Source: Marsupella aquatica (taxonomy: Eukaryota; Plantae; Marchantiophyta). Taken from it: a DNA stretch of 64,000 nucleotides. Below the pieces are notes generated by a model that was not told the DNA's origin, searched no databases, and saw only the letters and a program-made list of their open reading frames with translations. This document shows positions 1 through 35,236 of the stretch, piece by piece. The stretch spans positions 2,294,001 to 2,358,000 of the forward strand of contig OZ316896.1 in NCBI GenBank assembly GCA_973895155.1. The letters run 5' to 3'. Made by a program: the position numbers and the translations under genes. Within the stretch, counting starts at the first letter, position 1; every line of letters begins with the position of its first letter.

Positions 1-575
1 ATGCACCTCCAAGAAATGGAACCAGCTCGTAATTTGTACACGAGTCTGGGGTATTCTTAGACTAGCAAAAAGCCAGCTTGAGGAAGTAAATGAAATGCTG
101 ACAAGCATTCCCAATGGAAAACCCCTTCAGAATGTCCATATTGAAGCTTTTGTTAGGATGGAAACACCGAATCTTCCTCCAATCAATTTCTTAGGTTTAT
201 TTTCAAGGTCTGACCTAAATCGATTTCAAGAAGACTGGCACAATCTTGAGAAAGATGAGCAAGCGAGGCTCTTGGAAATGTATGGGGAAGCTTCTAGTCT
301 GGTTTAGAGCCATCTTGAATGGGCTCTTTGTAAAGACTCTTTTTAAGAATATCAACTTATTTTTTTTTGTGGCACAATTCCGAATGAATAAAGAGTTACC
401 CGATTCGCTACGCATAAAATCTATTTGGTTGAATACAAGGACTTGGGGATATGCCTTATCTCTTGTCCCATCAAGAAAAAAATATATACAGACATCCGGA
501 CTCCAACCCTATGCTTTTGGATACACATTATCGCCTGTGGAAACCTTATCGCCTGTGGATATGAAGGTGATAAAG

Positions 576-583
576 TATAAATA
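576..583 (+). promoter_or_regulatory. Candidate TATA box of the ParB-MTase gene
   Basis: TATAAATA followed by a pyrimidine-rich leader, a GT donor at 712 and a TTTTTCAG acceptor at 1140, just before the ATG at 1145. Confidence 0.35.
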
Positions 584-752
584 GAAGTGCCTGGTCAGAA
601 AAAATTACTCTCATTTCTTTTTCTTCTCAACTTTGTTTGCCTCCGCGTTTTTCTCGGGCCGCAACATCTCTATAGCTTTTCGTATTTGCTCGAATCAAAA
701 CCAAAAAATAGGTAAAACCTGAAGAAACTCTCCCCTCCTTGTTTGGTTAATT

Positions 753-1105
753 GTTGAATCCTGAGAGGGATACGCCGTATCCCCATTTGTATTCAACTCT
801 ATTATTTGGCCTTCTTTTCAATTGAATACGAGATGGGATACCGCGTATCCCATCTTGCATTGAACACCCTCTTTTTAGTCTTCCATCCAAACCTCCTCGC
901 TCTTTCTTGACTTTGAATACGAACTGGGATACCGCGTATCCCATTTCGCATTCAACTCCCTCTTTTTCGTGCTTTGCATCAGACTCGAGGCAATTGTTGA
1001 GGTTGGATGCGAAGTGGGATACCGCGTATCCCATTTCGCATTCAACTCCCTCTTTTTCATTCTTTGCGTCAGACTTGGCAATTGTTGATGTTGGATGCGA
1101 AGTGG
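753..1105. repeat. Array 1 of ~43-bp palindromes (TTGAATRCGARNTGGGATAC-CGC-GTATCCCATYTCGCATTCAA) inside a putative 5'UTR intron (712-1140)
   Basis: Units at ~753, 822, 913 and 1003, plus a half unit at 1091; spacing ~68-91 bp. Confidence 0.9.
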
Positions 1106-1144
1106 TTTGGTCTGGTTCTAAGTGTGTCAATCTTTTTCAGGATC

Positions 1145-3106
1145 ATGTGACCGAACAAATCAAAGTCGTCTGGTTCGACCCAGTCTTCACGGACATCCAT
1201 CGTCGATGAGATTTGGAAGAAAGACCTTTACACGGAGGAGAAACTCGTGAGGAATAGGTGGTACTTCAGGGATGCTCGGGTGATGGATATTCACAGAGCG
1301 TATGAAGGTCCAGCGGTGTGGTTGGTTATCGTTAAGGGTAAAGACCATTGCCATTATGGATTAGTCGTGGACACCGGGGAGGCGGATATCACCAACTCAA
1401 AAACAAAACAGCTGAAGAAGATTCCAATGTACCTTTGCATTCTTCCGAACAATGCCTTCACTGTAGTTGTCCTCAACTACGAGAAAATTGATCGGGTCTC
1501 GATGAACACATTTCCTGATGACCCGATCTGCCAGCTAATTTTGGAAGTGCCGGAGATTGAGGACTTCTCTTATTGGTGTTTGAAATTTGTCTTGAAGTCT
1601 TGGAGGGTTGTTGAGGATTTTACGAAGGTAGCGTATAGGTCTGTTGTTGGAGCTGACTTTGGCGTCAAAGAGTGGCCTTTGAAGTTGAAAGTGACGAAGC
1701 CTACCGATCCGGCTTTGAAGTCAGGGGAGATGTCTGGAACACCCTCGACAAAGGAGAAATCTGCCACAGTTTCTTTTAAGGAACCGGCAAAGAGGAAGCT
1801 TGCAGATCAACTCTCTGGGGAAGGTTCTAAAGTAGCGGTGTCAGGAGAAGCTATTGTCAAGAAGAAATTGGATCGACGTGACATCCAGAAGCGCGCGCCT
1901 TTTGCACCATGAAGTGTTGTCTCATCTTTGGTCCCACCAATTTCACAGACACCTCAGATTCCTTCAACTTCGTCAGGTGGGCTTTCTTTATCATCTAGAG
2001 GAGCTGTTAAAGAAAAGAAAAACGATTCAACAGATATCACCACAGCTTTGCAGCGGGAAGAGACACTTGTGGTTCGTGAAGAAGTGTCTCGGTTGATGGA
2101 GACTAAGCGAGTTCAGAAGACAACAGTTATTCTGAAAACAACTAACCTGCTTCTTGTTGACGATATTGACGACGAGAACTCAACGTTGGTTCGAACAATC
2201 GATCGGTTGCATGTGGAGAACATCAAGACTTTGATGAAAATGAATCCGACAAATTTCACGACGCCATTTGTCTTGTTTGTGATCCCAAAAGACTGCCCGA
2301 CAGTGACAGACTGGGACCCAGAAAAGGCAGCAAGTTGGAGATATCGAGTGATTGGAGGTAATCACGGTGCTCGGGCCAAGAGAGAATTGTATCAGGCTTA
2401 TGGGAGATAGATCTTCAATGAACTCCAAGCTTGGGTGTATGCTGGTCTCACAAGGGAGGACATTCAGAAACTTAGCATCCAACATAATATTGATCAGGAG
2501 TACAAGAAAAAAATGAACAACATTGATCAAATCCGAACAATGCATAAGATTTTTATTGCCAGAGGAATGGCAAAAACCAAGGAGACTAGAGAAGCGTGTG
2601 CGATGGAGGTTTGCCTCGACGGGTTTTTTCCGGGGGACGCCACAAGCCTGAAGAAGCATGAGCCTCTCTTCCAAATTGCATTTAGGTCGGGTAAGGTCTG
2701 GGAACTCCAAGACCAGATCTTTGAGATGTGGAACAAGTTGGAGATCAAAGGGCAGAATAAGCAGAAGTCACCGATCAAGAAACTCAAGAAAGGAAAGGGA
2801 AAAGCGCAATCGATTCCAAAAGCTTTGAATAAGCTTGCAGGGGGCCTTACCTTGACACCTTGGAGAGCAATCCAGGGAATTGAACACGACCAATTTTTGG
2901 AGTCCCTTCTTCTCCGAGTGAAGGACCGGATGATCTCTTTGGAGCAGATGGCAAAAGTAGCCGAGAGTTACAAGAAACTTGTGAAAATCAGCAAGCTTTT
3001 TGTTCAGTTGTCAGGGCAGAAAGACTGGGCGACTTGCAAACAAATGTTTCCGAAAGAAACAGAATCTGCCGAGCTTGAAAAATGGAGTGGGAAATTGTCC
3101 GATGTG
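1145..3106 (+). pseudogene. N-terminal exon of transposon cargo gene containing a ParB/Srx-like domain
   Basis: ORFs 1247-1912, 1928-2410 and 2435-3241 share one frame with the ATG at 1145, broken only by TGA1148, TGA1910 and TAG2408. Motif YRVIGGNHGARA resembles the ParB GxxRxxA box. GTATGT donor at 3107. Confidence 0.7.
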
Positions 3107-3184
3107 GTATGTTCTTCCCTTCCACTGATTGGACTTTTCTATTTGTTTTGCCATGTTTGGAGGTTTTCTTCGTGGATTTCTTGT

Positions 3185-3586
3185 TGGAATGCGAAGTGGG
3201 ATATGGGGTATCCCATCTCGGATTCACTTGTGCTTATTTGATGTTGGTGATGTTTCAATGCGGTTTTTTCTTGGTTGAATGCCAAGTGGGATACGCGGTA
3301 TCCCATCTCGTATTCACTTGTGGTTATTTGAAGTTTGTGATGTCTCAATGTGGTTTTTGCTTGGTTGAATTCGAAGTGGGATACGCGGTATCCCTTCTCG
3401 TATTCAATGTGGTTATTTGACGTTTGAGATGTTTCAATGTGGTTTTTGCTTGGTCGAATGTGAAATGGGATACGGGGTATCCCATCTCGAATTCACTTCT
3501 GGTTATTTGACGGTGGTGATGTTTGACTGTGGTTTTTGCTTGGTTGAATACGAACTAGGATACGGAGTATCCCATGTCGCATTCAT
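3185..3586. repeat. Array 2 of the same ~43-bp palindrome, 5 units at 89-90 bp period, inside intron (~3107-3670)
   Basis: Units at 3185, 3275, 3365, 3454 and 3544 with core GGGATAC-NNN-GTATCCC. Confidence 0.9.
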
Positions 3587-3599
3587 CGTCCAGATTTGA

Positions 3600-4781
3600 T
3601 TGTATGAATTCCTAAATGGTTATCTCCCCATTGTCTTTCCTCCAGATTCTTTTAACAAGTTTGCGTTTGCAGTTGAAAGCTTTTTCGAAGAAGAAGAACA
3701 AGATGCAATTGGTGCCGATGCGGTTGAGAAGCCTATGGAGGAGCTGACTTTGAGTGTTATTCCCCCGGGGTTTAAGAATTATGTTCAAGAAGCGATTGAG
3801 AACTACAACCGTCGTCGTGGCATTGAAACGGTTGAAGCAGAGTCGAGTGACCATCGATGGAAAAACGTTGACGGAAATTTTATCAGATATACATTGCATT
3901 GTGGAGATGTCAGGGCGCTGGATAAGTTTGTAGAGAAAAGGAATTACACACTTGCAATTGCAGACATTCCTTATGGATTCAATGCGCCTGGCTCTGAAAA
4001 TGATGAGGTCCCATTTTCAGAGAGTGATATTGTGGATATGGTGAATTGTTTTGCCAAGGTGACAAGTTCAAAGATGTGGAGGTTTGTTGTGATTCACTCT
4101 TTGCAGCAAACTTGGTCTGTGATGAATGCTCTTGGAAAAACTTGTAACGCAGGTGTAGAGGCTGGAATTTGGGAGAAGCCAAATGTACATGCTCATCCTT
4201 CTGGGAATCGATTGGCTTGGGCTTTTGAAAACTGGTCAATCGGATATTATCACGAGAGTGGTATTAGGACCAGAGACATGTACAATTTTGAACATGATGA
4301 GAAAAGTGTAAACATCATAAAAGTCCCTTGTGTTACAAAGAAATATGTAACACCATTGGGAGAAATAGTGAACCCTTACCAGAAACCGATAGCTTTAGCA
4401 GATTGGTTCGTTCAACATTTTAGTGAAGCAAGGGATTGGGTTGCTGATTTATGTGCGGGGAGTGGTTCGACCTCATGCGCTGCCTTGTTAGGGAAACGTC
4501 CGGTGACAGCCGTGGAGCTCAGTGCAAGCCAGGTGGATTGTATCTGGACCCGACTTGTCACGCTTGATGAATCATGGGACTTGAATGATGAAGCAACCGA
4601 GGAGGGTACAGGACCCATGAGCTTTGAGGTTCAACCACCTATTGGTGGTACTACGAGCACCCTCACCACTGGAACTTGCATTATTACAACTGCGGAGGAG
4701 AACGACAATGATGAGGATGAAGATGATGAAGTGGAACATGAAGCTCCGGCACTTGATCTTGGCTCATTCCTTGAGGTGTAG
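3600..4781 (+). CDS. Beta-class DNA amino-methyltransferase (N6-adenine/N4-cytosine, N6_N4_Mtase-like) exon
   Basis: LHCGDV, catalytic motif IV variant ADIPYG, IWEKPN, NPYQKPIAL, SAM-binding motif I DLCAGSGST, and AVELS, in beta order (IV before I); acidic tail. Confidence 0.85.
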   Translation: MYEFLNGYLPIVFPPDSFNKFAFAVESFFEEEEQDAIGADAVEKPMEELTLSVIPPGFKNYVQEAIENYNRRRGIETVEAESSDHRWKNVDGNFIRYTLHCGDVRALDKFVEKRNYTLAIADIPYGFNAPGSENDEVPFSESDIVDMVNCFAKVTSSKMWRFVVIHSLQQTWSVMNALGKTCNAGVEAGIWEKPNVHAHPSGNRLAWAFENWSIGYYHESGIRTRDMYNFEHDEKSVNIIKVPCVTKKYVTPLGEIVNPYQKPIALADWFVQHFSEARDWVADLCAGSGSTSCAALLGKRPVTAVELSASQVDCIWTRLVTLDESWDLNDEATEEGTGPMSFEVQPPIGGTTSTLTTGTCIITTAEENDNDEDEDDEVEHEAPALDLGSFLEV

Positions 4782-4893
4782 ACTTAAGTTTGATTTGTTC
4801 TCTCATGTTGTATCTATTGATCCAAACTTGTGAAATATTGAGGAAGATTATGATTGGACTATGTTCTTATTTCACAAAGTAATGTCTTTGCAG

Positions 4894-6110
4894 GAACCAA
4901 AGGAGGATTTTGTATTAAAACATGTTCTGCATAGATTCTCACACAATCCTTCTAGTGGATTTCTTTTGGACAATAAAACATTGAGCCAACTTCTCAGGGG
5001 TCTCACTATATGGGGACCTCCCCATCGCCTGCGACGTTTTTAGGCCTCGGACCCCCTAAAATGTAAGAAAAAAAATTTATTTATTAACCCCTATAAAGTT
5101 GGAATATTCTTGGAATATTCTAAAAATTGGATTAAAAGGACCCTAATGTTCTTATAAGTCTCAAAATTGAATTTAAAAGACCCTATTGTTCTTCTACAAA
5201 AATTCTTAAGTCTTCCCTTAGAACCAATAAAATGACCCTATCCTTCGTCGCACGTGATATGCCATTTTTGTGGAAGTGAAACCCCCGAGGCCAACTTGAA
5301 CCCGGTCAATATTTGGGTGATGAAATAATGGAATTTTACCCACAATTAATAACCGAGGAACATGGAGATCTGGCTCCCTTAGTAAACACATTATCCTTTT
5401 TTTTTTACCCTTGGCTTGTTTCAAGGATTGAAACAGAACCAGCTGAGACCCTGTTGGAATCAATTCAAAAGATGCGGAATTATTACAAGCCACCATTTTC
5501 CCAAATTGAGGTCATTCTCATGCCAATTCACATGAGCATGCACTGGAGTCTGGTTGTAATATGTTTGGATCGGATTGAATCTTCGATCAAAATGTATCAT
5601 CTAGACTCTCTCGCCGGTCTACACTCAACCCATGTAATTGGATCAATACTGAGCAGGTATGTATATATTCGATTACATTTTTTCAATTTGAATTTATTTA
5701 TGTGGTACATAAATATAAACACTTTGGACTAATAACTTTGAATGATAATTTGCAGATATTTTACAATGGAATGAGAATTATTTTTTGGAAAAGTTCCAAT
5801 GGGAGTTGTGGAGATATACAATCCAATGGTAAGGATTTGAAAAGTTATGTCAACTTTTATTTAGTTCAATTATTAAACACTTTGGACTAACTTTAAGATT
5901 CTTTCTCAGGTACCTCAACAACCAAACAATTCAGATTGTGGTCTATTTGTTCTTCAAAATATGGACGAAATCAGAATTCAATGGCATATTACACAATGCC
6001 TTGATGCACAGTCTTTATTTACTGAAAAATGGTACAATTGTAAAAGAGCATGTAACCTTAGAAAATTCATTCGAGATCAAATTCTAAAATTGATGCATGT
6101 ACCTGTTTAA
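4894..6110 (+). pseudogene. Ulp1/C48 SUMO-protease-like domain (3 exons), interrupted by a MITE
   Basis: Removing the MITE restores TLSQLEPGQYLGDEIMEFY. Catalytic motifs PIHMSMHWSLVVI, HLDSL and, in exon 5910-6110, VPQQPNNSDCGLFVL. Confidence 0.8.
4993..5289 (+). mobile_element. MITE (~297 bp), hAT-like
   Basis: TIRs CTCAGGGGTCTCAC / GTGAAACCCCCGAG; perfect 8-bp TSD GCCAACTT at 4985-4992 and 5290-5297. Confidence 0.9.
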
Positions 6111-6121
6111 GGACATCAATC

Positions 6122-9100
6122 TCAATCCTCTGAGTGTGCAGAACCTCTCTCTAATATAGCAGACTCTATAATTTTTTTAGTTTTTGTTGCTATTTGATTA
6201 GTACTTAAAAGCGCAAAGTTGTATGCATACACCGCTATTGATGATAGAACTAGTTTATCTTGGAGAAGTCGATTAGATATATTATCTTTCTCTGGAAAAT
6301 ATTTCCCATCAATAGCAGACTCAGCACTTGCTTCAGTTGTGTACCATGTGATTTTGATTCTCTCGGGAATGTCTGCAGTTCTTGTCAAAAATTTTGACAC
6401 CTTTGCCATCCAAAACAACTTGCCTTCTGGATCCTTGAATTGTTGCCGCTACACATATCATGGACCACTTATTGTTAACTTCCATATCTCTGAAATCTCC
6501 AAATTCAGCTTGCTTTCGTCGAGGTCCGGAGTACATAATTCTCCGTGGTCCAGCAACTTTGTCAACCAAAGTTGGATCAACACCTTCTTCAACAAGTTCA
6601 TTTCTCACCCTTGGAAGTAGTTGTGCACCTTGATTTTGTTGCGGCCAAACCCACTCAAATAACCACTCACCTTCCTCTAGGTGGTTTTTGATAATATCTT
6701 TTTGTTTCTCAAAAAAACTCATCCACCAAAGTTTATCTTCATTGTCAAAGTAATTGAAACCTTCCTGAATAGCTTTTTCATATTTCACCAGAGTAGTTAA
6801 TGCACCATCTGTATTGGAAGAATCATGGACATCATCCCTCTCAACACCTTTTGCTGACTTTAGTGACATTTGTGCAGCAACCCACATTCTTGAAGTTGGA
6901 ATGTAATTGACGAACGTCACTGCATCTCCCCAATCCTGGGTCGTGGAAAGGTGTTTCCCGTGAAATGTTGTCTCTTCGTTTCCATCCTCCATCACTCGTT
7001 TGAATCTGAATTGCCTTTGAAAGGTTATGAGATTGAGATCTCTCAAGACTCTACCTGAGACTCCCTTCTCATTTGGCTGGTCGTTTTTATTGACAAATTT
7101 TTGAAAATTGGCTACTTCATCCACAAATATGATCAAAGCTTGAGGTGAATATGCTCGTCAAATAATATCCTCGAGAGTCTCCAAGCGAAATGCTTTGTAC
7201 GTGCTTGTTTAACCTAGACGAAAATTTACTAAACATCTGATCTATCTGGTCATGTGTATGACCGACCAACAAGAAACCCACTTTAATCTTGTCAAAAATC
7301 TTCAAATCTACTAACATGTGAAGATAAGCCATCAAGAATTTATTCTTGTTTTCCCGAGTGGTATTATCTAATTGAAGATATAACACTCTTGGTAATGTCC
7401 CATCCCATGTATTCAATACATTTTGAATAACATGTATGGTCAAGTTTGCATCATTATGGATATTGGGATATGTCAAAAATACTTTTGCTGCAAGGTTCCT
7501 GTTGAAGATGAGACAACCTACAACATGTATTGGAATGAAATATTTTTCATCCATGTTCTTTGGACAACGAATAAAATGTGGTAGCTCTGTTTTCTTTTGA
7601 TCCATACCATCTATACAAATACCCAAATACTTGTTGGGCTCATCATAGCATTTTTTACAATGCTTGGCTAACTTCATCCTTTCCAATGATTGTACTTTTC
7701 AATGCTCCATAAAGGCATTGATATACTTTCCTGAAATTATACAATAGCAATGAATTAAAAATCAATAACTAAGGATAAACTTTGACAAATATTGAATTAC
7801 ATGTCATCAAATTAAAGTTGAAGGTTATAGTTAGTGGAACTTACTTTTATCCTCTTCAGTTGTTGCTTTGTCCCGAAGAGCCTTGAATTCAGTACAAGGA
7901 CCACAAGTAGAAAATCGACTCCTTTTAGGAATTCGTACATTTGGAAACTTTTTTTTCCAAACACGCAAAAAATAAGAATATGTAACTTGTTGTTCTTCTC
8001 GCAACATTGTTTCAGCTTCAAAGATTCCATGTATCTCTTGCTTTGTCCAATTGTCTGGCAAGTGATGAATCTCTTTATGGGGAAGACTATCCATATTTTT
8101 TTGGAAAAAATCTTTCAACCATTCCACCAAGTTTAGAAATGAAGGTGAGTCTTCCTTACAAAAAGTATCTCGTTCAATCCTTGTAAACATGTTTGCATGG
8201 ATTGTTGCCAATCTATTATTACCTAAAGAATATAGTTTCTTGAATCCTCCTCTACATATAGGTTGTCCATTTACACTATATCCACGAGAAGTACTACAGT
8301 TGTTCATGATACAACCTCGTAGCAAAATATTTTTTTGCAAGTGTTTACGACCAAAATAATACTTGCGTTGTTTTGAGCATTCCTCTAGACCCAAAGACCT
8401 CAAGCAAAACTTGTCACAACAGGGATACTTAAAAATATATTTAATTTTGTGTTTTTTTAGATTTGCAATGGTAAATCTATCTTTTCTAATCATCTGATCT
8501 CTGATTTTCTTGCTGGGTCTTGTCACCTCTACTCTATCCTGAATAGTGTCGGGAGAACTTACCCCCCCCCCCACTATTTTCTAGTGAATTAGAATTTAAA
8601 ACAAAAAGATTTGATGTAGAGTTGTTTCCACTCTCCACATTTTCTGTAACTGTTTCATGAACAATCTCACCTCCCAAGATCTCTTCAACAACATTTGAGA
8701 TTACAGCAGTCTCTCTGTCATTTGCAGCCTCCTCTGATCTCTCTTCAGAGTCTTCTGAAAATGTAATAGGTGTTCTGAGATTTCTAGTTTGAAATCTTCT
8801 AATGATATTCACATCTTCAGTCGGAGTACCGCCCACTTGTCTCTGAGACTGTAATCCCAGCCTAGGTGATTCTTCTCGACTTGAGGGCTCATCTTGACCA
8901 TTGAATAATCTTTGGACAAGTTTCAATTTAGCATGTACCCTTGAATTTTTGGGCCCTCTCTCCGGCAGCTCACTTCGCAATAATCTCTGAGGAATTTTTT
9001 GGACACTAGATCTCTTCCCTCTTTTGTTCTGCACTTGCCGTCCAATGGAAGATCCAAAAACCTCACACTGCATCCTCGCCAAAGGGCTTCGAAGTCCCAT

Positions 9101-9156
9101 GTTGGTAGTTTCACCACTCTGTGAAATAACTGATGGGAATACCGATTGGGATCCAT
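6122..9156 (-). pseudogene. Sola1-like (DUF7869-type) DDD transposase, frameshifted
   Basis: CIDGMDQKKT, YLQLDNTTRENKN and FLLVGHTHDQIDQMFS; upstream Cys motifs (CCDKFC, ICRGGF, STCGPC); intron 7731-7844; spread over ORFs 8923-9156, 8534-9100, 7831-8574, 7117-7686, 6333-7136 and 6122-6418. Confidence 0.7.
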
Positions 9157-9160
9157 GGAT

Positions 9161-12100
9161 TGTGATGCCTAGACAGGAATCACTCGGCCGGTTAAGTGGG
9201 TAAAGCAGGAAGGCACCCTAGGAACACCTTAGTATAGTGACAAAACAAGGAAAATATAAACAATTAGGGGCAACCATGGAACCCGGGCAGAGGCCGGAGG
9301 TAAGGCTGAGGGTGAAAACCCGATTAGGGTTAGGGCGCGTTAAGCGTCGGCGGCTAGGAAGGATCAACGGGAAGAAGGACCGGCAGAGGAGAGGGGTAAG
9401 GAGCGCTTGCAGGAGATGGTGGCTCATTTGCGAGCACGAACTAGGCAGACGACGACGGGAGGCCAACTACTGTCAGCTGCTTAGGCAAGCACTCGGGGAG
9501 AGAGTAGATACCGACGATCAACCTAAGGAGGGTATGAGCAACGTCAATCAAGCAGCACATTTCTGGGGATGCCTGTTCGAACGGGCAACTGAGTACATCA
9601 AGACTTACGAGGACGAGGAGTCAGAAAGGGCAGCTCGAGAACGGCAGGAGCTCGCTCGATTGTGGGAGCTGCAGAAGACGGCTTTCTTAGGAGGCGAACT
9701 CATCAAGGACGAGTTCCTGTGGACGCCTACTTCCAATCAACTCGACGATCTTCTGTTTTGCAAAGACAGCGTCGTCGGCATCCGAGAGGCCATCAAGAAC
9801 TGCAACGACATACGCTGGGAATTAAAGGGTAGCACGGAAAGGTGGACCCAGGCAACGGTGCTAGGAGAAACCTCCACGGCAGCAGAGATGAAGAGGAAGG
9901 GAGCCGTCAACGATGAAGCCACCCCGGCAAAAAGAACGAGGTCGGCGGCACCAAAGAAGCCAGCCGAGCAGCAGAGCAGGAGGCAGGGAGAAGCCGAAGA
10001 GGAGGAGGTCGATCCCATCAAGGCCATTCCAACCAGGGATGACACCTGGAAGGGCTGGGCGGCAACCCTACCGGTGGAGGTGCAACTACATTTTGCACGG
10101 GAGGAGGATGCATGCTTTACGGCCATGCAGACCAAGAAGTACCAAGGCTTCATGGCCGGATCCGGCTTGGAGGCCTTTGTAAGATTACCATGGCTGAAGC
10201 CGGAGGTACCGGAGTCAGACCTATTAGAATTCGTGGGGTCATGGGAACCCGAGACCAATTGCACGAGGATATATGGGAAGGATTTCTATCTTACTCCCAA
10301 GGTGATTGCCGAAGTGTTTGGCTTGCCGATGGGCAATAAGACCAAAGTTGATACCAGGAAGACCTTGCCTGACAAGGAGTTCCGGTCGTTCCCCGGGCCA
10401 TCAACGAAGAATGGCTTCTTCCGGAACACCTGCACCAACCCGCACATAGGAGAGATGATCGACTTCTTGCGGGTGACCATGCATTGTAACTTGCCGAGGG
10501 CAGAGATCGGCAAAGCACAGGTCTATCTGGCAGAAAGGCCAGACCCAAGCCGGGACTACAACGGGTACCTCCTCAACCAATTGAAGAAGATCTTAAAGGA
10601 GGAGCAGCAGGTAATCGGCATGGGGAGCGTGTCGCGGCTTGGCTATCACATGCCGCTGTTGTGCCGGTATGCCAGAGGTCAGACTTTTGCCCCGGTACTT
10701 CCCCTGCAGGTAAGGGCACCCGAGGAAGCTCCAACGCCGAGGCCGTTGGCTGAGAAGCCTCAACCACCTGTTAGTCCTACGATCGAGCAGGTGTTTAGGC
10801 CCAGGAAGGAAGACTTGCCGATGCAGCAACCAGGCATGCAGAGTCTGCTGAAACTACTGGAGAAAGAAAAGAAATCGGCATCGGCAACAACAACGGCAAC
10901 GGCAACAATGCAGGACACTACTACAGAGGTAGGCCTACACCGGCTCACAAGAGAAAACCCCTTTGCTGGAGACAAGGAGAGAATCAGGCCGGAATCCAAG
11001 CCAGGTGTTCGAATGTACGTGGGAACCTCAAGCTCCGAATCTGAGGCAGAATTGCCTGAAGCTCCTACCGAGGTAGAGGAGGCAGTGGAGGACTGCAGCC
11101 ATGATAATTCCGGCTATGGGTCGGACCATCACGTTCCAGGAGTAAGGACCTGTGGCCGGTTTGTCCCCACACTTCCAAGGGTAGTGCGAGGGGACCCCAA
11201 CCAGCAGAGTAGCCCTGAGTCTCCCCCACCAGATGTTGCTCCCCCGAGCTTCGACGGCATAAAACAGACGGTGCAAGAATTTCAGGAGCGAATCAAGCAG
11301 GAGGAAGAGGCCGCCCTGGCTAAGGAAAAGGATTTACCAGGAGGAGATTGGCCGGAGGACATCAGGCGGCTAGCCGAAAAAGGAAGCAAACCTCTAGCCA
11401 CGATTGAAGAGATCCGCAGGACGGCTTGGGAGCAGAGGCCACGATGGGCGATGCCGATCACTTCTACTTACTCCACCTACGCTAAGAATAGAGCCATGGA
11501 GTATGGTGAGATGTGTGGGGAACTTGCGCTCGGCATCTTTGGAGAGGAGTTGGAGGTAGGACCCTTTTTCCATAGGGAGCAGTTGGAGAAGCACCAATTA
11601 GAAGAAGCGGTGGCTTTAGAGAGAAGCAAGAAGGACGAGGTCATTCGGCGGCTTAGGAGGATGGGAGCCGAGATTGAAGATCTAAGGGCGGCCAAGAAAG
11701 CCCAAGATGAACTGCGGATTAAACGACATGAGCTGAACATCATGCAGGGGCAGTTGGACGCCGCGCAGGCTGATAATCAGAATATCAAGGATAAACTGAC
11801 TCAGACGCAGGAAGAGTTGGCCGACACGATCAAAGAAAGGGAAAAGTGGAAGCAAGAGCTGAAGAATACAGAGGAGGCCCACATAACAGCCAACAGCCGG
11901 GCCATGGCGGAGACCCAAAGAAAGGAATGGGCGTTGAAAGGGGAGCTCGAGAAAATCCGCGGAGCCCTTGAGCAGAAGGAGGTTGAGTTAGGGAAATCCT
12001 ATCAAGGGATTATGGCGCTGCAGCAGGAGCTTGCGTCCCTGACGGCCAGCTTCAAGGCCGACCTAAGGGAGAAGGACGAGATGCTCGAACAGACTTACGC

Positions 12101-12175
12101 CGTTTTTCACGAAATCGAAAACACACTTCTCGTTTGGTGGTCATACTTCTCGTTTGGTCCGTCACTGTGTTTAGC
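9161..12175 (+). mobile_element. LTR-retroelement fragment (TG-starting) carrying a large accessory ORF
   Basis: Abrupt switch to GC/CpG-rich sequence at TGTGATGCC; ORF is homologous to the one in the TSD-flanked unit 22183-25881. Confidence 0.55.
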
Positions 12176-12182
12176 CTTGTGA
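9237..12182 (+). CDS. 981-aa retroelement accessory protein: plant-transposon-protein-like domain plus long C-terminal coiled coil; 3' end truncated at the gag junction
   Basis: Long open frame; GLEAFVRLPW..LLEFVGSW..IYGKDFYLTPKVIAEVFGLP; heptad-rich C-terminus. Confidence 0.65.
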   Translation: MTKQGKYKQLGATMEPGQRPEVRLRVKTRLGLGRVKRRRLGRINGKKDRQRRGVRSACRRWWLICEHELGRRRREANYCQLLRQALGERVDTDDQPKEGMSNVNQAAHFWGCLFERATEYIKTYEDEESERAARERQELARLWELQKTAFLGGELIKDEFLWTPTSNQLDDLLFCKDSVVGIREAIKNCNDIRWELKGSTERWTQATVLGETSTAAEMKRKGAVNDEATPAKRTRSAAPKKPAEQQSRRQGEAEEEEVDPIKAIPTRDDTWKGWAATLPVEVQLHFAREEDACFTAMQTKKYQGFMAGSGLEAFVRLPWLKPEVPESDLLEFVGSWEPETNCTRIYGKDFYLTPKVIAEVFGLPMGNKTKVDTRKTLPDKEFRSFPGPSTKNGFFRNTCTNPHIGEMIDFLRVTMHCNLPRAEIGKAQVYLAERPDPSRDYNGYLLNQLKKILKEEQQVIGMGSVSRLGYHMPLLCRYARGQTFAPVLPLQVRAPEEAPTPRPLAEKPQPPVSPTIEQVFRPRKEDLPMQQPGMQSLLKLLEKEKKSASATTTATATMQDTTTEVGLHRLTRENPFAGDKERIRPESKPGVRMYVGTSSSESEAELPEAPTEVEEAVEDCSHDNSGYGSDHHVPGVRTCGRFVPTLPRVVRGDPNQQSSPESPPPDVAPPSFDGIKQTVQEFQERIKQEEEAALAKEKDLPGGDWPEDIRRLAEKGSKPLATIEEIRRTAWEQRPRWAMPITSTYSTYAKNRAMEYGEMCGELALGIFGEELEVGPFFHREQLEKHQLEEAVALERSKKDEVIRRLRRMGAEIEDLRAAKKAQDELRIKRHELNIMQGQLDAAQADNQNIKDKLTQTQEELADTIKEREKWKQELKNTEEAHITANSRAMAETQRKEWALKGELEKIRGALEQKEVELGKSYQGIMALQQELASLTASFKADLREKDEMLEQTYAVFHEIENTLLVWWSYFSFGPSLCLAL

Positions 12183-13135
12183 TTAGGATTGCCACAGTAG
12201 TTGCAAGATGGCAGCATGAAAGCAACATATGCTGGTTTGGTCTTGGAAGCATACTGTGGCACACGGGAAGGGGTGGTCATTGTAGGGGCAGCAGCCTGGT
12301 ACCTGGATCGCGGTGGACGCGCAATACTGGCCTCATAATGTGCATGGGCCAACTCAAGTTTCTCATCAGTGTCATAGACAGTGAACAGTGTATAGCCGTC
12401 TCCAAACTCTGAGAATACTTGTTGCAACACTTGCGAATGGAGAGCTGGTGTGCCCTCCAATGTGCGAAGATAGCGATGAGCAGCTTCCAGGTCAGTGATG
12501 CTCTGGGTGTCCTCCTTCAGCTTGAGAAGCTGGCGATACATCATCTTCAATGTTTCATCGCGCTGCCTCACAAAGGTGGCCAACTGCATGATTTTGTCAG
12601 CACTCTTGATTGGGAATTCCAATTCAACAACCTGGAAAAACTCAGCCATTGGATCAGCAAAGGCAAGGGAATCAATGGTGGGAGAAATGCTTGATGTAGC
12701 CTGTGCCAAGACAGTGGGAGTAACTGGCGTAGTGGTAGGAACTGGAGTAGGAGGGGAAGTGGCAGGAGCAGCAGCATGGGCTGCAATGGCATTCTGTAAG
12801 GCCAATTGTGAGGCTGCCGCAATTTCACTGGCATAGGTAGGGTTAGGCAACCTTGTGACAGCAAGCAGCCATTGAGAATGCTGCTCATACACATCCAAAG
12901 CCTCATGGTGCACATACCTGGCTAGCTGCTTAAATGCAAAAGCATTTGTGAAATTGTTGCCGTACTTCAACTCCAATTTGTAAACGACAGTGTAGAAAGT
13001 GGATTTGAACTCACGTAAAGAGACAATGCCTGGCCGCCCGCTGAAGCGCTCAATGCGGCCAGATGAGTGGTTGACATCCATGCTGTATGTCGGTGAAGCA
13101 AGAACAACCACTGATGCAGAAGGGGTAAATGGCAA
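12176..13135 (-). pseudogene. Ty3/gypsy-type gag, truncated in the zinc knuckle
   Basis: IERFSGRPG..LREFKSTF, ALDVYEQ, RQRDETLKMMY and CNYCGNPNH; no pol downstream. Confidence 0.75.
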
Positions 13136-13410
13136 TGAAGTGATAGCAGGCTTCGGAGTAGTGGTGAAGCGATCGCCAAATATAGCAGGAGGATTGCGTG
13201 GTGTGGGTGTTGCTGCTGTCTGTGGACGTCGTCAAAATTTCCGAGACTCCAATGAAATTGGCACCAATGGTCGTGGATCACTCCGTAAATGGTACCTGGG
13301 TGTCGGTGGCGATGTGCTGCTATGACTTGGCTCCTCTGCTGACATGCTGCATGCTCACCCGGGGTGCCTAAATAAAAAATGTCCCCCTTCCCGGTGGTAC
13401 AAGGTGCCAA

Positions 13411-14976: not shown

Positions 14977-15117
14977 TTGCAGTCTTTTATATCAATGTAT
15001 GTTTGTTTTGATTTATTTTAGGCAAGGTGTATTCGTTGTATTTTTGGATTTTGAAATTATTTTACCCCCCTTTAATACTTTTAATTTTATTTTTTGAGAC
15101 CCCCTTTTAGGTCTATA

Positions 15118-15420
15118 CTCAGGGGCCTCAATCCAAGGGGTGTCCCATATCACACCCAAAATTTTGGGGGCAATAAACACAATAAAACTTAAGTCAATAA
15201 ATTTATTTGAAGAATTTTTTACCCCTACCTTAATTGAATTTTCTTGGAATATTCTCAACTATGGTTTAAAAAAACCCCTATGTTTCTTATAATTCTCAAA
15301 ATTGGATTAAAACAAATGTTCTTCAACAAAAATTTAAAATTCTTTAACTAAACCTAATAAAAAACCTATATAAATTAGTTGCGCGTGATAGGTTGGAAGA
15401 AAAGATGTGAGAACCCCAGG
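15118..15420 (+). mobile_element. Diverged copy of the ~300-bp MITE
   Basis: CTCAGGGGCCTCA..TGAGAACCCCAGG; TSD-like GGTCTATA/GCTCTATA (7/8); internal similarity to 4993-5289 (TTCTTGGAATATTCT, TCTCAAAATTG, CGTGATA). Confidence 0.7.
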
Positions 15421-17619: not shown

Positions 17620-18235
17620 TTCCCCGGCCCGGTGTCAAATTCTCCCGGCCCCTCCCGGCCGAGCACCACACTCTCCCGGCCTGGTCGAAAATCTTCCCGG
17701 CCAGGTCCTAAAACCCCCCTGCCCGGCCCGGCCGGGGGTTGGGGAGGGACGGGAGAGGGGAGACCGGGCCGGGGGAGGGAGGCCGGGGCGCGGGGTGGGG
17801 TGGGGACGGGGCGGGGAGGGAGGCCGGGGGTGGGGAGACCAGGCCGGGGGGCAGGGAGGCCAGGGCGGGGGGTGGGTGCCCGGGCGGGAGGGGGGGCGGG
17901 GGGGGAGAGGGGAGGGGAGGGAAGCCGGGGGTGGGGAGGGGAGGGAGGGAGGCCGGGCCGGGGGGAGGAAGGCCGGGCCGGGGGGGCAGTGGGAGAGGAG
18001 AAAGGCCGGGGCCGGGGCGGGGGTGAGAGAAGCCGAGGGTGGGGAGGGGAGGGAGGGAGGCCGGGGCGGGGGGGGGGGAGTGGGAGAGGAGGAAGGCTGG
18101 GGGGAGGGGGGAGCGGGGGCTGGGAGGCCGGGGGAAGGGGAGGGAGGGGCGGGCCGGGGGGCAGGGCGGCCGGGCGGTAATTTACTTTGCGGCCGGGGCG
18201 GTAATTTACTTTGCGGCCGGGATTAGGGTTAGGGG
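17620..18235 (+). repeat. Extremely G-rich GGCCGGGG/GGGGA low-complexity tract upstream of the hAT transposase
   Basis: Dense G3-G5 runs; ends in a 22-bp duplication (GGCGGTAATTTACTTTGCGGCC) and TTAGGGTTAGGG. Confidence 0.85.
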
Positions 18236-19085
18236 CCACGAGACGGCCAAAATTAGGGTTAAAAGAGTGTAAACCAAAAATTAAGGCTAAAAATACGGGA
18301 AAAGGGGTCCGTGGGAGGCCATAAAAGGGGAGACCCCCAATCATTGTACACACAACTTAGTACGAGAAACACTAAGCCACTAAGGTCTAAGGGTAAGTTT
18401 TGCAATACTTCTCAATTTTAGAGTCTTATAATGAAATGTTTTTCTTTAGTGAATTGTAATGGAGTAATATATATGAATTTTTGTATGCGCGGGTCTGGAG
18501 CCTTGGCTCGGCTCGGGATATTTCATACAAGAGTTCTATATATTAACTTAACAACTTAACGTCATTTATTTAGTAAGCAAAAAAATTTCAAAGGATAGAG
18601 AAACCCATGTGCGTAGGCTTGGAGCTTTGGCTCAGTCTGTGATATTTCACATGTGTGTCACAATTTCCCTGAAAATATTTCTGCTTTATAAAGAAGTGAT
18701 TGTTAAGTTATAGATATTCTATAACTTAGGACGAAGTAGGGATGTAAGCAAGTATGAGAGATTGGGAAACGATGGTGCGTAATCTTGGAGTCTCGACTCA
18801 GATTGTGGTAATTCATCAAAGTGTCCTACTCTTTTATACTTGTTACAACCAAACATAAAAACAACAAAAATACTATGATAAAATTTAGGGAACTCAAAAT
18901 GTTGTGCAATGTGATTATTCTTGGGGTTCATTGTATCTGCTATATGAAGTTTGATATACAATAAATATTTATTTTGTATTGTTGTATTTATGTATGTTCA
19001 GTGTGCGTTGGAGAGGAGATGACACTGTCATTTTATTGACGGTACACTGTAGAATTTGAATTTTGCATGTACATCTTTCTTTACA

Positions 19086-22001
19086 ATGATTTCTTCCGAT
19101 GACAATGAGTCCGGTGAATCTGGATATCGTTCCACTATCCCTAGGCATGGAGCAAATCATTCGCGAGAGCATGGTGCAAAATTTTCTACAGTGTGGAAAT
19201 ATTTTGAACAATGTGATGCGCCTTCAACATCTAATGATGCAAACCGTATGTATCAAAAATGCAAGTTTTGTAAAACATATATTACTTTTCATGCAACACG
19301 AGCCAAAGCACATTTGATGGGAAACATCATCAAAGGGAATGCACCACCATGCCTAGGCCTGTATGGTCATGTGGAGTTGGATGAAATCAACAGAATGTAC
19401 AATGTCATCAAAGTTCCATCAAACATCAACTACAAACGAAGGGATGGAACCCATATCTTGCGGGATGTCAAGGGTCGCAGGCCAGAGATTGGAACTTCCC
19501 ATTCACAAGCATCCACACGAGAGTCTAACCATTTTCAAATGGAAAATGAGTCAAATACGACTCATATGGCTCGGGCAGGAAGTCTTTCAAACCCGATTAT
19601 GGATGCTTATCAAGTTCCACATAGAGCGTATTTGGACAAGCTTTGGGCAAAAGATTTCTACACAAGTGGTATTGCATTCAATGTTTCACAGAATCCTTAC
19701 TTTCGAGAAGCAGTACACGAGACTTCAAAAGGTATTGTAAATGGGTATTCTCTTCCCATTATGCGAAATTTGCGAATGAAGTTGTTGGAGGAAGCCAAGG
19801 AAGATCTCACAAAAGACATCACCAAAATCATGAAGGAAACAAAACTTTTTGGTTATTCTGTTTCATCAGATGGATGGGAAAACATTCGTAGGGAACCTTT
19901 GATGAACGTCATGTTGTTGACTTCTAAAGGTGATTTTTTCTTGATATTGGAATGCGGCACAAGTTGATAGGAAAGATGGAAAATATCTTGGAGAGATGTG
20001 GCTGAAATATATCGATGACATTGGTCCAGATCACATCGTTCAAATTGTAACTGATGGTGCGCCTGCAAATCGTGTAGCGGGTTGTGAGATAGTCATGAAA
20101 AAATATCCACATGTCACTTGGAGTTGGTGTGCTGCCCACGTGTTCAATTTGTTGCTAGAAGATATGTGCGGTCATAAGAATGTAGTGCTAGATGAGAGTA
20201 GACAGAATCCATTCAAAAGCATTTTTAAACTCTTGAGATGGATAGTAAAAGCAGTTTCATCGTCCCAAAAGCTCTTCGCAATATTTGTGAGAAAATCGAC
20301 TTACAAAAAACTACTAAATCCAAATGCAACAAGATTTGCAACAAATTTTCTCATGGCGCAAAGAGCATTGGAGCTAAGAGGAGCTTTGCAACAAATGGTC
20401 ATTGATGATAAATGGGAGTCTTATCGTGATAGACTTCCTGTGCGTGCAAAATCAAATGGTCACATGACAAGGGCCAAGGCAGAAGAACTTAAATGGTGGA
20501 TACAACAAGATAAATTTTGGGCCGATGTGAAAGCTACAGTGAACTTCTTTCTTCCGTTGGTGAAGATGCTTCGCGAATTTGATGGTGCTTCACCCCAATC
20601 AGCCTGGTTGTATTGGAGTTTGAAAAGAGGGATTACTGATTTGAAGGCAAGCATGTCAGAATGTCCATTGGTAACAGAGTTCTTGAAGCCAAGGATATTA
20701 AAAGTGTATATGGATCGAAGAGAATCTCTTACCACCGATTTCATGCTAGCTGCAGCATATATCAATCCTCAAATGTTTTTTGATGAAGACCTAGATGTTG
20801 CTGGAGATGGAGAACTATGTCGAGGTTTCAATGAGTACATTGCCCGATATGCCGAACACAAGGTGAAGGAAGGGGTCAACCATGATCGTGAGGTTAATGC
20901 ACTCATTTCTGCCATACAATTGCAAGCAATTGATGCGCAAAAAAAATACCAAACACAACAGTAACCATGAGAGGAGCCCAATCTAGTATAGGTCAAGTAA
21001 GTCCACGAGAGTGGTGGCATTCATACGGTGCTGATTATCCAGATTTAAGAGTTTTGGCTAGAAAAATCTATCACCAAAAAATGTGTGCATCTGCGTGTGA
21101 AAGAAACTAGAGTTCTTATGGATTTATTCATTCTGCAAGTCGCAACAGATTGACAAATGATCGAGCAAAGGATTTAGTGTTTGTATTCACAAACATGAGA
21201 GTGGAGAAAGGGCTTATAAAAGTAAGAAATCCCCATACGTTTATATATCAACGTTATGAGGAAAGAAGAGCAACAAATAACGGTGTCAGGCCATTATCCA
21301 CTGAGCAGACTCAGAATGAAGGGTGTGACGCAATGTATACCGCCCTTGGTCAAGAAGATGTCAAAGATTTTGATGCAATTGATGATGCGGATGAAGCCTT
21401 GGAAGGATTATTATTACATAAAGATGGTGACTTCTTAACTCGTCTTCCACCAGATATAGATGTAAGTGATGCAGGTGATTGGGAGAATGAAATGGATTTC
21501 GAGATGTATCCTACAATTGACGAGTCGCAGATTGAAGATGAAGATCATGCATCGTTGTATTCAGATTTTGCAACACCTTTCCAACCAAACGCATCTTGGG
21601 CTTATCCATCATTAAACGTCCATAATGATGTCGACCCAAGTAGCTCATACTTTGTTCAACAACACACTAGCACACAAGGGCATCATTCTAAGGGAAGCAA
21701 ATCAGCTACTTTTCAACAACCATATAATGTTCAAGGTACATCTTTGAACAACACACGTGCACCATGGGAAGAAGCTACTACAATCTTCAATGAGTATGGA
21801 GGTCAGACTATGACTAATCCATATACATCCAACAATCCTATTGATTGTGAATTTCAAAGAACATCATCATTTCAACAAGCTCAGAGGAATGTCCATCTGC
21901 AAAATCGCGACCCAATTGCATGGGCTGCAGAGGAAGAGTGGAATCAAGCTTTGCAACAAAATCACAACAAAAACACTAGGAATTTTCTTTCACAGCCTTG
22001 A
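19086..22001 (+). pseudogene. hAT transposase (zf-BED, DUF659 core, dimerisation domain)
   Basis: VWKYF..CKFC..AKAHL; SSDGWENIR; QIVTDGAPA; WCAAHVFNLLLEDM; PNATRFAT; WWHSYG..ASACERN*S..SRNRL; frameshifts near 19950 and 20950, stop at 21108. Confidence 0.9.
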
Positions 22002-29500: not shown

Positions 29501-30953
29501 TTGCAGAATAGGAGATTGACCGCGAGCACGAGCTGCTTGAAAAATAGGAGACTGAGGGCAACCTGCTTCTTTGTTGCTACTCTGGTTGCGCTGCTACATT
29601 GGTTGTTGATCTTCACCCACCCACTTGCCTACTCAATTGACAGAGTACAGCTTTGTCTCTGCGTCTGTTATTGCTGTCTTTGTCCCTCCCCTTGAAATTG
29701 TGGGCCTTAAAAGGTCAGTAAGTTGGCTTATGTAGTTTTTATGTCCCTCCGCTATGTCAATGCGTGTTTCATTGCATCAGGGCATCAGTCGCTGTTTGCC
29801 TATAACCGGACTGTTCATTCTCTGTCCACTCATTTGATGTAATTCTTCCCATTGCCGCCCAATGCTATGGCGCCCATGCTACAATTTGTGGTTTTTGTCT
29901 AAGCACAAATCCTCTCTGTGCCTGGTCTCTGTGTCCCGTCATTGGGATTGATTGTGTAGACGTTTCCTCTTCTCCCAGTCCTTGTCATCCACCAGCCAAA
30001 GCACATTGGATTGTTTTCAAAGGAGGGCTGTGTAGTTTGGAGGGTTTGATCTATGCAGCGGATTTGAGCAGATTGGCGGTTGTTAGTTTCTTCTTGTAAA
30101 ACCTGTCTGTCTTTTCTGCTTTTGGCCATGCTCCTTCACTTCTTGCTGCAAGCTCAATGTGCTTCAGCTATGGCAATATTCACTTACCCTATCCCAACGG
30201 CACTACCGTGAGCTGTAGGACAGCCAACAGAAGCAGATTGTATCGATTGCATGTAAGTCAGGGTATTTTATGTATTGCGGAACAACTATCCAAGTTTGCT
30301 GCAATGGCCGGTCTTGCGCAGCTGAATGAGCCAATTTCATTTTCCCTGTGCACTTCTATTTCTCAAAGAATTCCTTGGTCATGCTCATTTCCCCCAGAGT
30401 TAGAAAACAAAGAAGAAGAGCTGACTAATTGTAATTCCAATCCATATCCTGATCGGTCAAGGATTGTTCACTACATTGGCCTTGTCATTGGCCGAGGTCA
30501 CCAAATTTTGCTTGGTTTCATTCCTGTGGAGCACTGCTGTGATGGATTTGTCGTAGCATTCTGCAAACTCTCACGGTTTGCTTATGGCCATTATTTGCAA
30601 TTTGCTGCTACTAATATGTCTTCTTCTGAGCAGCATACACCAGAAGTAAGCAATAGTGGAGGTTTAACTGCACATCAACACATCTAGTGAACTACCTCTC
30701 TGTTGCTCACTGGAGGGTGAGACTTTCACTCTTTCTGGATATTGTAGTTTGTAAGCAAGTTGATTAGGAGTGTTTCATGCTATGTTTACACTGTGACCCC
30801 TAGCTGGAACCAATGGAATGACACAGTGAGTGGGAACTGATAATTTAAGGTTGGTTGCTGTTGGTGAGGCAAGTACAGCTCCTGCTCACCTTGCTGATCG
30901 AAGGTGCTTATCAGAGGACGTGAACACACGACATCTCCACAAAAGCAACACTT

Positions 30954-31403
30954 ATGGTGAGGACCCGCAACGCTGAACATGTGCGGCTTGCACGCAAGGC
31001 AGAGATGTTGCGCCTTGAGTATGTCAGACTTGGGATCCTTCCAGCCCAGTCTGCATGGTACTTTGAGTACCCAATTGTTGCCAGGAACAACTACAGCCGG
31101 CCTGTACCTGCTTCTCCACCCTTCCCAACATCCTTGGTATTTCTTTCTCTCATACATGACCCGCCACAAATTAGGGCCCAAGGGTGTGTGCACAGTTGCC
31201 AATATGACTGTCCTGCCTGTAGGGCTTCTGGCCTAGAGTTGGATGATCGTTCTCTTGGATGTCGGTTTTTTCACAGAGCACAATGTATCATCTGGAACCA
31301 CTCGCCATCCTGCAGTGTGCCTGGCGATGTCACTTGTCCTGCCCTCCCAGACCCCACCACCGGTCACTTTGGTGTTTACACATGTTTGGATCACACGCTC
31401 TAG
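30954..31403 (+). CDS. 149-aa Cys/His-rich protein of unknown function (CACTA A cargo)
   Basis: Same-length ORF retained in element B (54646-55095), with 12 aa differences. Confidence 0.5.
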   Translation: MVRTRNAEHVRLARKAEMLRLEYVRLGILPAQSAWYFEYPIVARNNYSRPVPASPPFPTSLVFLSLIHDPPQIRAQGCVHSCQYDCPACRASGLELDDRSLGCRFFHRAQCIIWNHSPSCSVPGDVTCPALPDPTTGHFGVYTCLDHTL

Positions 31404-32072
31404 AGGACCACTTGTCACACCGCATGCACAAACCAAAGACCATTGACCTATAACTTAACACTTTGACTTGAACAGAGAGGATATTTACTTAAGATTTTGA
31501 ATTATGACCAATTTTGGGTCCAGGGTTTAGGGTCAACAGTACATAACTTATCCTATTATGGCTGCACTAAGTACAATATCCTAATTTAAGAGGCTAGCAA
31601 GCTCACTTAAAAGTCTCCTTTCAAAGACTGGAATTAATGGGCCATGTGATAACCTGGAAAAAGTGATTTCTGCCTAACTTATTTGTCTCATTCACTATCA
31701 TAGCCTATTTAGGATGTATAAATTACAACCCTGATCACAGTGCTTGATACCAATCCTGTTCAAAAAATGCTTGTTTTACATGTCACGACTGTTATATGTG
31801 ATTCAAATGCATTAAATCTTGTTGCAGATCTCCTTTGGTGAATCATAGCCACAAAATTGAGGTGTAGGTGGAGCTATTGTACGAGGGGATCAGTTTTTAG
31901 TGTGGGCTCAACAAACCAAAAAGTATGTCTACTCTGCACATGTGTGTGAACATTTCATTGCAGTAGCAATTGCCACTCTAGTCTATATGCTACACTGTAC
32001 TTTTTGTACACTGCACTAAATTATATTGTCCGTGCACTCTGCTAAATTGTACTATCTGTCTCATGCGTAGGC

Positions 32073-34200: not shown

Positions 34201-34340
34201 GGAGTAGGAGTCCCTCATATTTTTGTATAAAACACAATTTTGTAATAAATGTGATCCTTGAACTAACTCATCTTGTCATGGTTGGTCGCAGTTGAAGTGA
34301 TTGTTGTTTCCTGCTGCGTGGGGTGTGACTGTGAATCTAC

Positions 34341-34910: not shown

Positions 34911-35236
34911 TAAGATGAGGACATCTTACACTGGTCTCGCACCTGGCACCTGTGTCTATGACTATACATGATTGGACTCTGATATGGTCATGGATGTACG
35001 TGCAGAGGCAGTACATGTGAGGACAGCGGAGGAGTTGACACCCTCAAACATTTAGGAATTTTGTCTCATTCACTTGAGAATAGGTACATGACTCAGGCAC
35101 CTATATTTTTTGTTTTTTTGTTTTTTTGGAACGTTACGTATTTTGGCAAGTACAGTCGGGGGTGAAATCCTTAACAGGAAGTGTATTTTTCACTTGCATA
35201 ATAAAATGACAGGGTGCTGAGTGCGTGTGTATAGTG

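Follow-up and report, generated by a model that had tools for sequence, protein, structure and literature searches.

What reads the palindromes at this locus? Two introns of one gene in the liverwort Marsupella aquatica, the first of them putative, carry tandem arrays of the same long palindrome, and the gene encodes a predicted ParB-fold region fused to a DNA methyltransferase-like domain (the fusion protein and fusion gene hereafter). We analyzed the 64,000-bp stretch containing the gene (contig OZ316896.1, positions 2,294,001 to 2,358,000; the window) together with six homologous loci (L001-L006) found by one metagenome scan among 113 candidate stretches. The palindromes are real and probably functional. 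The explanation that we prefer, at a probability of roughly 0.6, is that the fusion protein binds the palindromes as a dimer and methylates nearby DNA, thereby marking or regulating its own transposable element. Binding by the fusion protein as such, with or without methylation, appears likely.

Palindrome arrays in the window and at the homologous loci

With two or fewer mismatches, GGGATACNNNGTATCCC occurs nine times in the window against an expectation of 0.16 (100 shuffles). The two arrays reported by an earlier reading of the sequence alone (the sequence-only reading) are thus real and, as it had also stated, no further copy is present in the window at this threshold; at three mismatches, two chance-like matches to the window's type of site (type W) emerge at 446 and 518. 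Each site has the core GGGATAC-NNN-GTATCCC within a full palindrome of 43 bp, of which the arms are ~20 bases long, and the half-site consensus from the 18 arms is TTGAATNCGAAATGGGATAC. A half-site weight matrix run over the window scored the 18 arms at 21.6-34.2 bits and found just three further places above 8 bits (9135, 15140, and 49439; 9.4-15.6 bits).

Array 1 comprises four palindromes, to which no strand is assigned, at 754-796 (degenerate, loop GCC), 822-864, 913-955, and 1003-1045 (loop CGC in all three, the last being nearest to the consensus), with centres at 775, 843, 934, and 1024. Array 2 (3185-3586, likewise unstranded) comprises five, at 3185-3227, 3275-3317, 3365-3407, 3454-3496, and 3544-3586, centred at 3206, 3296, 3386, 3475, and 3565. 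The sequence-only reading had counted 4.5 and 5 copies; the five stand, and array 1 holds four, the half copy being a partial left arm on the plus strand (1090-1105) from which the core is missing. The claimed period of ~90 bp describes most intervals (68, 91, and 90 in array 1; 90, 90, 89, and 90 in array 2) and fails for the first. Likewise, the loop had been given as CGC in one array and GCG in the other, which is accurate for three of the four sites in array 1 and for merely two of the five in array 2 (GGG, GCG, GCG, GGG, and GGA); the opposite base bias is nevertheless present, as the plus-strand loops are C-rich in array 1 and G-rich in array 2, fitting an opposite orientation of the arrays. 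The linkers can be aligned inside each array, the units of which are tandem duplicates. Between the arrays, the linkers showed no similarity in either orientation (one of the 24 comparisons in one direction reached a shuffle p of 0.03), and the view that they are unrelated is upheld.

The same kind of site recurs, in altered form, around the homologous genes. Five of the six loci, in which the methyltransferases are 55-58% identical to that of the window, carry arrays, and every locus holds its own type alone. The type-A sites of L001, L002, L004, and L005 have the outline GAAT-N5-GGAGCGA(G/T)AC-NN-GTCTCGCTC-N6-ATTC, and the type-B sites of L003 are one-armed (roughly AATAC-N5-CCGATCCAAACATCGG). 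We counted nine type-W sites in the window, 16, 6, 8, and 5 type-A sites at the four loci, and 20 type-B sites (≤0.06 by chance). At the loci, sites are found ahead of the ATG, within both introns, and beyond the stop codon, and all 64 sites in the window and the loci (two or fewer mismatches) are outside coding DNA, even though coding sequence makes up 60-80% of each stretch. A probability of 10^-33 for this placement was set aside, as it treats duplicated sites as independent.

The three types share the half-site AAT-N9-GA(T/G)(A/C)C, in which the intervening bases are variable. Counts of AAT-Nk-GA(T/G)(A/C)C peaked at k=9 in the window and four loci (17, 30, 14, 11, and 8), no other k exceeding 3, and the spacer is divided in L002 (five with k=9 and six with k=10). 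The gap between the GA(T/G) boxes is seven bases in type W and six in types A and B. A two-part sequence with a fixed spacing and free filler has the look of a protein binding site. Furthermore, the motif type follows the protein clade, as is the case for VANC targets and as the comparison of subfamilies suggested by the sequence-only reading was meant to reveal. In the methyltransferase tree, the four type-A loci are united in a starred clade (95/98), and the three of them that entered the ParB-region tree are united there as well (100/98); L003 and the window fall outside both clades. L002 was too short for the ParB-region tree, and L006 was omitted from both trees. The predicted recognition region in the alignment also differs among the W, A, and B proteins.

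The sequence-only reading had further proposed selection on the ~90-bp phasing, for which the relatives give no support: their sites are 33-229 bases apart, with runs of 44-46 and 61-63, and no periodicity of 10.5 bases was detected in the spacing (p 0.33 and 0.79). The 90-base period is a trait of the window's subfamily. In L003, type-B sites occur as inverted pairs 46 bases apart (3165-3226 and 3353-3414), a spacing that the tandem type-A sites of L002, L004, and L005 also show (44-46).

Palindromes in introns may alternatively act as hairpins in the pre-mRNA, by controlling splicing, by promoting back-splicing of the middle exon, or as a source of small RNAs. Both introns indeed fold much better than shuffled sequences (z -9.9 and -4.5), and the arrays flank a single exon and can pair with each other. 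However, true arms match their partners no more closely than arms re-paired at random inside an array (p 0.26 and 0.45), type-W sites show one compensated change versus 32 one-sided changes, and the fixed arm positions are mostly unpaired (position -14 is paired in about one of the nine type-W sites). Type B is asymmetric, one-armed, and present on both strands, sites are also located well away from the coding region on either side, and Rfam returned two weak matches far below the threshold. A pooled arm-pairing signal for type A (p 0.002) was discarded, since it vanished once partners were shuffled within arrays (p 0.45). Because the arms lack compensatory pairing, we favor DNA binding sites over RNA hairpins, which we regard as very improbable.

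The fusion protein and its gene

The sequence-only reading took the gene product as a fused ParB-methyltransferase protein, and both halves are retained here, the first as a predicted fold and the second as a PF01555 domain. A structure model spanning window 2021-3106 and based on a 72-row alignment attained a predicted local distance difference test score (pLDDT) of 89. With this model, Foldseek gave 14 matches at E ≤0.001 led by ParB and Noc (best E 5.8e-6, probability 1.0). The predicted ParB/Srx nucleotide-binding fold (2117-2503, plus strand), in which we take GGNHGARA to be in register with ParB Box II, aligned to 7bm8 over 98 residues (Z 10.6, root-mean-square deviation (rmsd) 2.2). It is followed by a helical region (2510-3001, plus strand) that is predicted to be a DNA-binding domain of the ParB/KorB kind and has a lysine-rich insert. 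KorB (8qa9) could be aligned over 200 residues spanning the two domains (Z 9.2, rmsd 4.4); against isolated DNA-binding domains, the helical domain scored a Z of just 4.0-4.9.

The top match of an 11-row profile among Protein Data Bank (PDB) sequences was residues 152-192 of Spo0J at a weak E of 0.23, HTH_ParB was matched weakly in two of the 72 members (best E 0.032), the Pfam ParB families gave no match in the fusion protein, and the 72-row profile hit one helical protein in the PDB, which is uninformative. An earlier model from 11 rows (pLDDT 64), in which ParB appeared at E 0.03 or worse with a Z of 5.6, was replaced by the 72-row model. Altogether, the structural matches predict an N-terminal ParB-CTPase (ParB/Srx) fold in the fusion protein. 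Atlas look-alikes of the ParB-fold region are fungal DUF3723 clusters (0.95-0.96 for P0003, with a low recognition score); this is a hint, and only a lead, that DUF3723 is ParB-like, and the literature search found no paper treating DUF3723 together with ParB.

The last exon (3673-4781, plus strand) encodes a beta-class amino-methyltransferase-like domain and an acidic tail. PF01555 was matched at 27.1 bits (cutoff 26.7), and motif IV (DIPY) precedes motif I (DLCAGSGS), which is the beta-class order. The ParB region and PF01555 are fused in eight of the 72 aligned proteins, many of the rows being fragments, and the fusion is also found in distant homologues from Chara, Riccia, Ginkgo, and Holothuria. 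In the sea cucumber Holothuria leucospilota, the proteins P0139/P0199 and P0146 combine the ParB fold with PF01555 at ~20% identity; the fusion cassette thus extends beyond plants. In viral contigs, neither domain had a relative, and the exact motif matches there are solitary and outside arrays (eight of type W and two of type A), and prokaryotic genomes yielded a single weak match of 30% identity that is free of sites.

Array 1 lies in a putative intron of the 5' untranslated region (712-1140, plus strand), which is proposed from its GT/AG ends and the ATG at 1145 alone; in L001 and L003, the first array is likewise upstream of the ATG. The coding exon that follows (1145-3106, plus strand) encodes an N-terminal region of unknown fold, 23-25% identical to the first exons of L001 and L003, and then the ParB-fold region. 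A site-bearing intron separates the N-terminal and ParB exons in L001 (1690-2062) and L003 (1209-1893); the window gene has neither an intron nor sites between the two regions, and no sites downstream. Array 2 lies in intron 2 (3107-3672, plus strand, phase 0, GT/AG), which is placed there because the homologous open frames stop at the same GT and protein P0008 continues without an intron into the next exon. A phase-0 GT/AG intron occupies this position in five loci (L001-L005), and the homologues moved the end given by the sequence-only reading from ~3670 to 3672, leaving its start unchanged.

The window copy contains in-frame stops at 1148, 1910, and 2408 and a frameshift near 3701. As contigs of the element-bearing runs differ from the window at these stops and at the frameshift, we regard the window gene as a decayed copy of a multi-copy family; the fusion gene of L003 is an open frame. 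Since the window copy is dead, its sites would be readable only by the protein of other copies.

Weighing the binding and methylation of the sites

In the mechanism that we propose, each subunit of the dimer would read one half-site through the core GA(T/G)(A/C)C and the AAT nine bases outward. Tandem duplication would have increased the number of sites, and protein and site would have changed in step. The mark, N6-methyladenine (6mA) or N4-methylcytosine (4mC), may keep the element active or tune the fusion gene, much as VANC acts on VANDAL. Proteins of the ParB family bind palindromes in dimeric form, and four residues can switch their specificity (PMC7383237), so that sites specific to a family are plausible.

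Several observations weigh against this reading. The canonical catalytic motif of amino-methyltransferases is (D/N/S)PP(Y/F/W), although DLPY is present in phage enzymes. Motif IV reads DIPY in 17, DVPY in three, and DLPY in one of the 21 aligned rows, and DPPY in none. The arginine of the GxxR motif, which PMC12704722 names for ParB Box II, stands at the corresponding place in one of 78 matches, and a later arginine is found in 41 of the 78. With the GxxR arginine rare and DPPY absent, either domain may be inactive, and we consider classical CTP-gated sliding by the fusion protein doubtful. All six homologous loci stem from a single metagenome assembly, and in L006, which is 39-40% identical, a stretch of 1986 bases that includes two introns proved free of sites. 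The agreement between motif type and protein clade is not proof of co-evolution, since three types correspond to no more than two changes in the phylogeny, related loci have their labels in common, and the window branch is long. Moreover, the half-site pattern was derived from the same data that it describes, tandem arrays also avoid exons for trivial reasons, the ends of the element were not found, and the read data, considered below, show the palindrome in more contexts than the window copy holds.

The departures in motif IV, which affect all 21 rows, would suit a fusion protein that binds the sites but does not methylate, acting as a plain repressor or activator of its own gene, with a methyltransferase domain that is vestigial or serves as a reader. 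The top structural matches include the repressor KorB, and the sites flank the start of the fusion gene itself. The methyltransferase motifs are, however, strongly conserved (61 invariant columns over the 21 rows), and the fusion has been kept in Chara, Riccia, Ginkgo, and Holothuria. We consider a binding protein that lacks methylation improbable.

As to the read data, contigs placed on window 640-1240 pile up at palindrome 4, where they bring in numerous foreign flanks as well as linkers other than those of the window. Summed depth at palindrome 4 was 7,423 in X1, 96,282 in X2, and 197,204 in X4, against some hundreds (X1 and X2) or a few thousand (X4) in the linkers and the exon. The pile-up over the flanks, ~16-fold in X1 and 60-130-fold in X2 and X4, is not a copy number, as the depths of many short overlapping contigs (25-41 for one variant) were summed, which inflates the total. 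This summation and the collapse of nine sites per copy explain part of the pile-up; the excess may represent sister subfamilies, deletion derivatives, or an unrelated repeat. On window 997-1057, contigs of X2, X4, and X5 show other linkers (units of 82 and ~90 bases) joining two type-W palindromes, pointing to arrays in sister copies or in other repeats. The many contigs with other flanks and linkers, mainly in X2 and X4, together with the tandem duplication of the array units, are what would be expected if the palindrome were the remnant of an independent dispersed repeat, such as the seed of a miniature inverted-repeat transposable element (MITE) or a satellite, neutrally expanded in the non-coding DNA of the element. 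On the other hand, sister subfamilies with other linkers would look identical. Furthermore, the three types, built on a common half-site frame, are found at corresponding positions in genes that are 55-80% identical, no locus has the type of another, and neither a target-site duplication nor a shared linker was seen. A dispersed repeat thus seems a poor candidate for the origin of the sites.

The sites may also belong to a different product of the element, most obviously the putative transposase encoded by the neighboring DUF7869 gene, in the manner of subterminal repeats, with the proximity of the fusion gene being incidental. The transposase genes travel with the fusion gene, so their clades would follow the motif too. 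Sites in L002 and L004 fall between the 3' ends of the two genes, and a lone match to the shared half-site lies at window 9135-9154, ~35-55 bases before the putative transposase start, although its 12.4 bits do not exceed the best chance match in the window. Nevertheless, the density of sites is highest in the introns of the fusion gene and upstream of it, whereas window 4782-9200, including the introns of the DUF7869 and Ulp1-like genes, contains none, and the predicted fold of the fusion protein is known for reading palindromes. Recognition by the DUF7869 protein is, in our judgment, unlikely, and binding by the fusion protein remains the explanation that we prefer.

The surrounding element and comparable systems

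The DUF7869 gene (6333-9101, minus strand, start approximate; PF25273, E 8.5e-41) is convergent with the fusion gene in the window. Its product would be a DDD/E transposase, judging from its acidic motifs, which we take to be Sola-like; a PDB search with DUF7869 and a literature search on it returned nothing, and the nearest DUF7869 cluster is mostly streptophyte. L002 and L004 are the only two of the six loci that extend far enough to reveal a neighbor; in each, a DUF7869 homologue and the methyltransferase exon are arranged tail-to-tail, so that the two genes adjoin in three loci including the window. Between them, the window contains pieces of an Ulp1-like protease gene (5290-6110, end approximate, plus strand; PF02902, E 1.5e-11), unlike L002 (1626-1985) and L004 (2650-2995), and the cargo therefore differs among subfamilies. 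A high-copy MITE-like insertion foreign to the element (4985-5289, unstranded; eight bases fit either side of the joint) precedes these pieces. The joint 4984-5290 that lacks the insertion was recovered in three runs plus many loose ends; the insertion itself is very deep in reads, and a related copy resides 10 kb away at ~15110-15420.

Upstream of the fusion gene, window 1-584 consists of broken frames that have no Pfam match and an element-like read depth, perhaps a further cargo gene. No ParA family was detected among the 40 of 123 open reading frames (ORFs) of the window that were scanned, and the left part of the element is outside the window. On the other side, another, deeper repeat (~9200-13300) hides the element end; it contains an ORF of 986 amino acids on the plus strand and another on the minus strand, presumably gag-like. 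Farther away, there are G-rich tandem repeats (17736-18221), pieces of a DUF659 gene that we assume to be hAT-like (19053-20964), and two diverged inverted CACTA-type copies with Transposase_21, DUF4218, and DUF4216 (30650-40143 on the plus and 45558-55447 on the minus strand), each with NSD-like PHD-finger and BRCT genes ahead of it as chromatin-reader cargo. The CACTA domains of the window are of the plant type.

The closest counterpart that we found is PAG3 of red-algal Plavaka elements, a ParB-like gene with tandem inverted repeats for which binding and modification of the element itself have been proposed (Petroll et al., 2025, bioRxiv 10.1101/2025.02.11.637652). Like the gene in the window, PAG3 is an accessory gene of a eukaryotic DNA transposon, encodes an N-terminal ParB-like domain, and is adjacent to inverted-repeat arrays. 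Its best match, 7BNR, is also matched by the window protein, and a PF01555 methylase exists on the same element (PAG2). PAG3 differs in ending in a 2-oxoglutarate (2OG) oxygenase, the methylase being encoded by a separate SET-fused gene, whereas a single protein carries both parts in the window. The partner is the Plavaka/EnSpm transposase for PAG3 and DUF7869 here, and the likeness, as compared here, is one of domains and layout. Petroll et al. give, supplements aside, neither a motif sequence nor a comparison of motifs with protein clades. Three features go beyond the PAG3 proposal and are new: the fusion to a methyltransferase, the putative transposase as partner, and the correspondence between motif types and protein clades.

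VANC and VANDAL provide a precedent, and a tested one, for tandem repeats in non-coding DNA whose motifs are specific to a family (PMC5735166). As in the window, short motifs have been multiplied in tandem in introns and in intergenic and terminal non-coding DNA; they differ among related families and can sit in another element (AT9TSD1). VANC motifs are non-palindromic and of 8-9 bases, whereas the sites described here are bipartite palindromes of 30-43 bp, and VANC causes the loss of methylation, whereas the unrelated window protein has a predicted enzyme domain that would add a mark. A VANDAL element encodes a Mutator-like transposase and a VANC homologue, in contrast to a DUF7869 neighbor and only the ParB fold plus PF01555 here.

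Among bacterial proteins, ParB, Noc, KorB, and VirB share with the fusion protein a nucleotide-binding fold and a helical DNA-binding domain (both predicted in our case, the second less firmly) as well as clustered palindromes (PMC7383237). KorB and VirB regulate transcription, and VirB is a ParB-like anti-silencer (PMC10770331). The window family differs from this group in the absence of the GxxR arginine, in its longer two-part site, and in having a methyltransferase where those proteins have the C-terminal dimer domain. Fusions of ParB with N6N4-methyltransferases are common in phages (PMC12704722) in the identical domain order, and one of them, P0048, was matched through the methyltransferase (E 3.9e-4), although its ParB part could not be aligned with the window family (hhalign probability 1%). 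In contrast to the phage fusions, the window family is eukaryotic, bears introns, and has a large helical domain between the ParB and methyltransferase parts. The chlorophyte ParB-HTH methylases are group-2 enzymes of a different class (PMC4738411). No account of such a fusion with arrays in plants emerged from the literature search, although the supplements of the red-algal and the 2016 papers may bear on this point. Altogether, the palindrome system works like VANC/VANDAL and parS/ParB and belongs to neither.

More tentatively, and at odds that we put below even, a plant DNA transposon lineage may have turned a prokaryotic ParB-methyltransferase to self-recognition, with every subfamily tagging its own copies with 6mA or 4mC by means of a parS-like code private to it. 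With similar reservation, that code may consist of the shared AAT-N9-GA frame with a variable core and centre, and the system as a whole would be an additive counterpart to the anti-silencing by VANC. The three natural protein-site pairs (W, A, and B) make the proposal of eukaryotic parS-like arrays testable in a three-by-three design. If the methylase works, it would bring 6mA or 4mC into plant genomes from a mobile element and write epigenetic marks at targeted sequences; if the private-code reading is true, the family would comprise naturally occurring DNA methylases that are targeted by sequence and orthogonal to one another.

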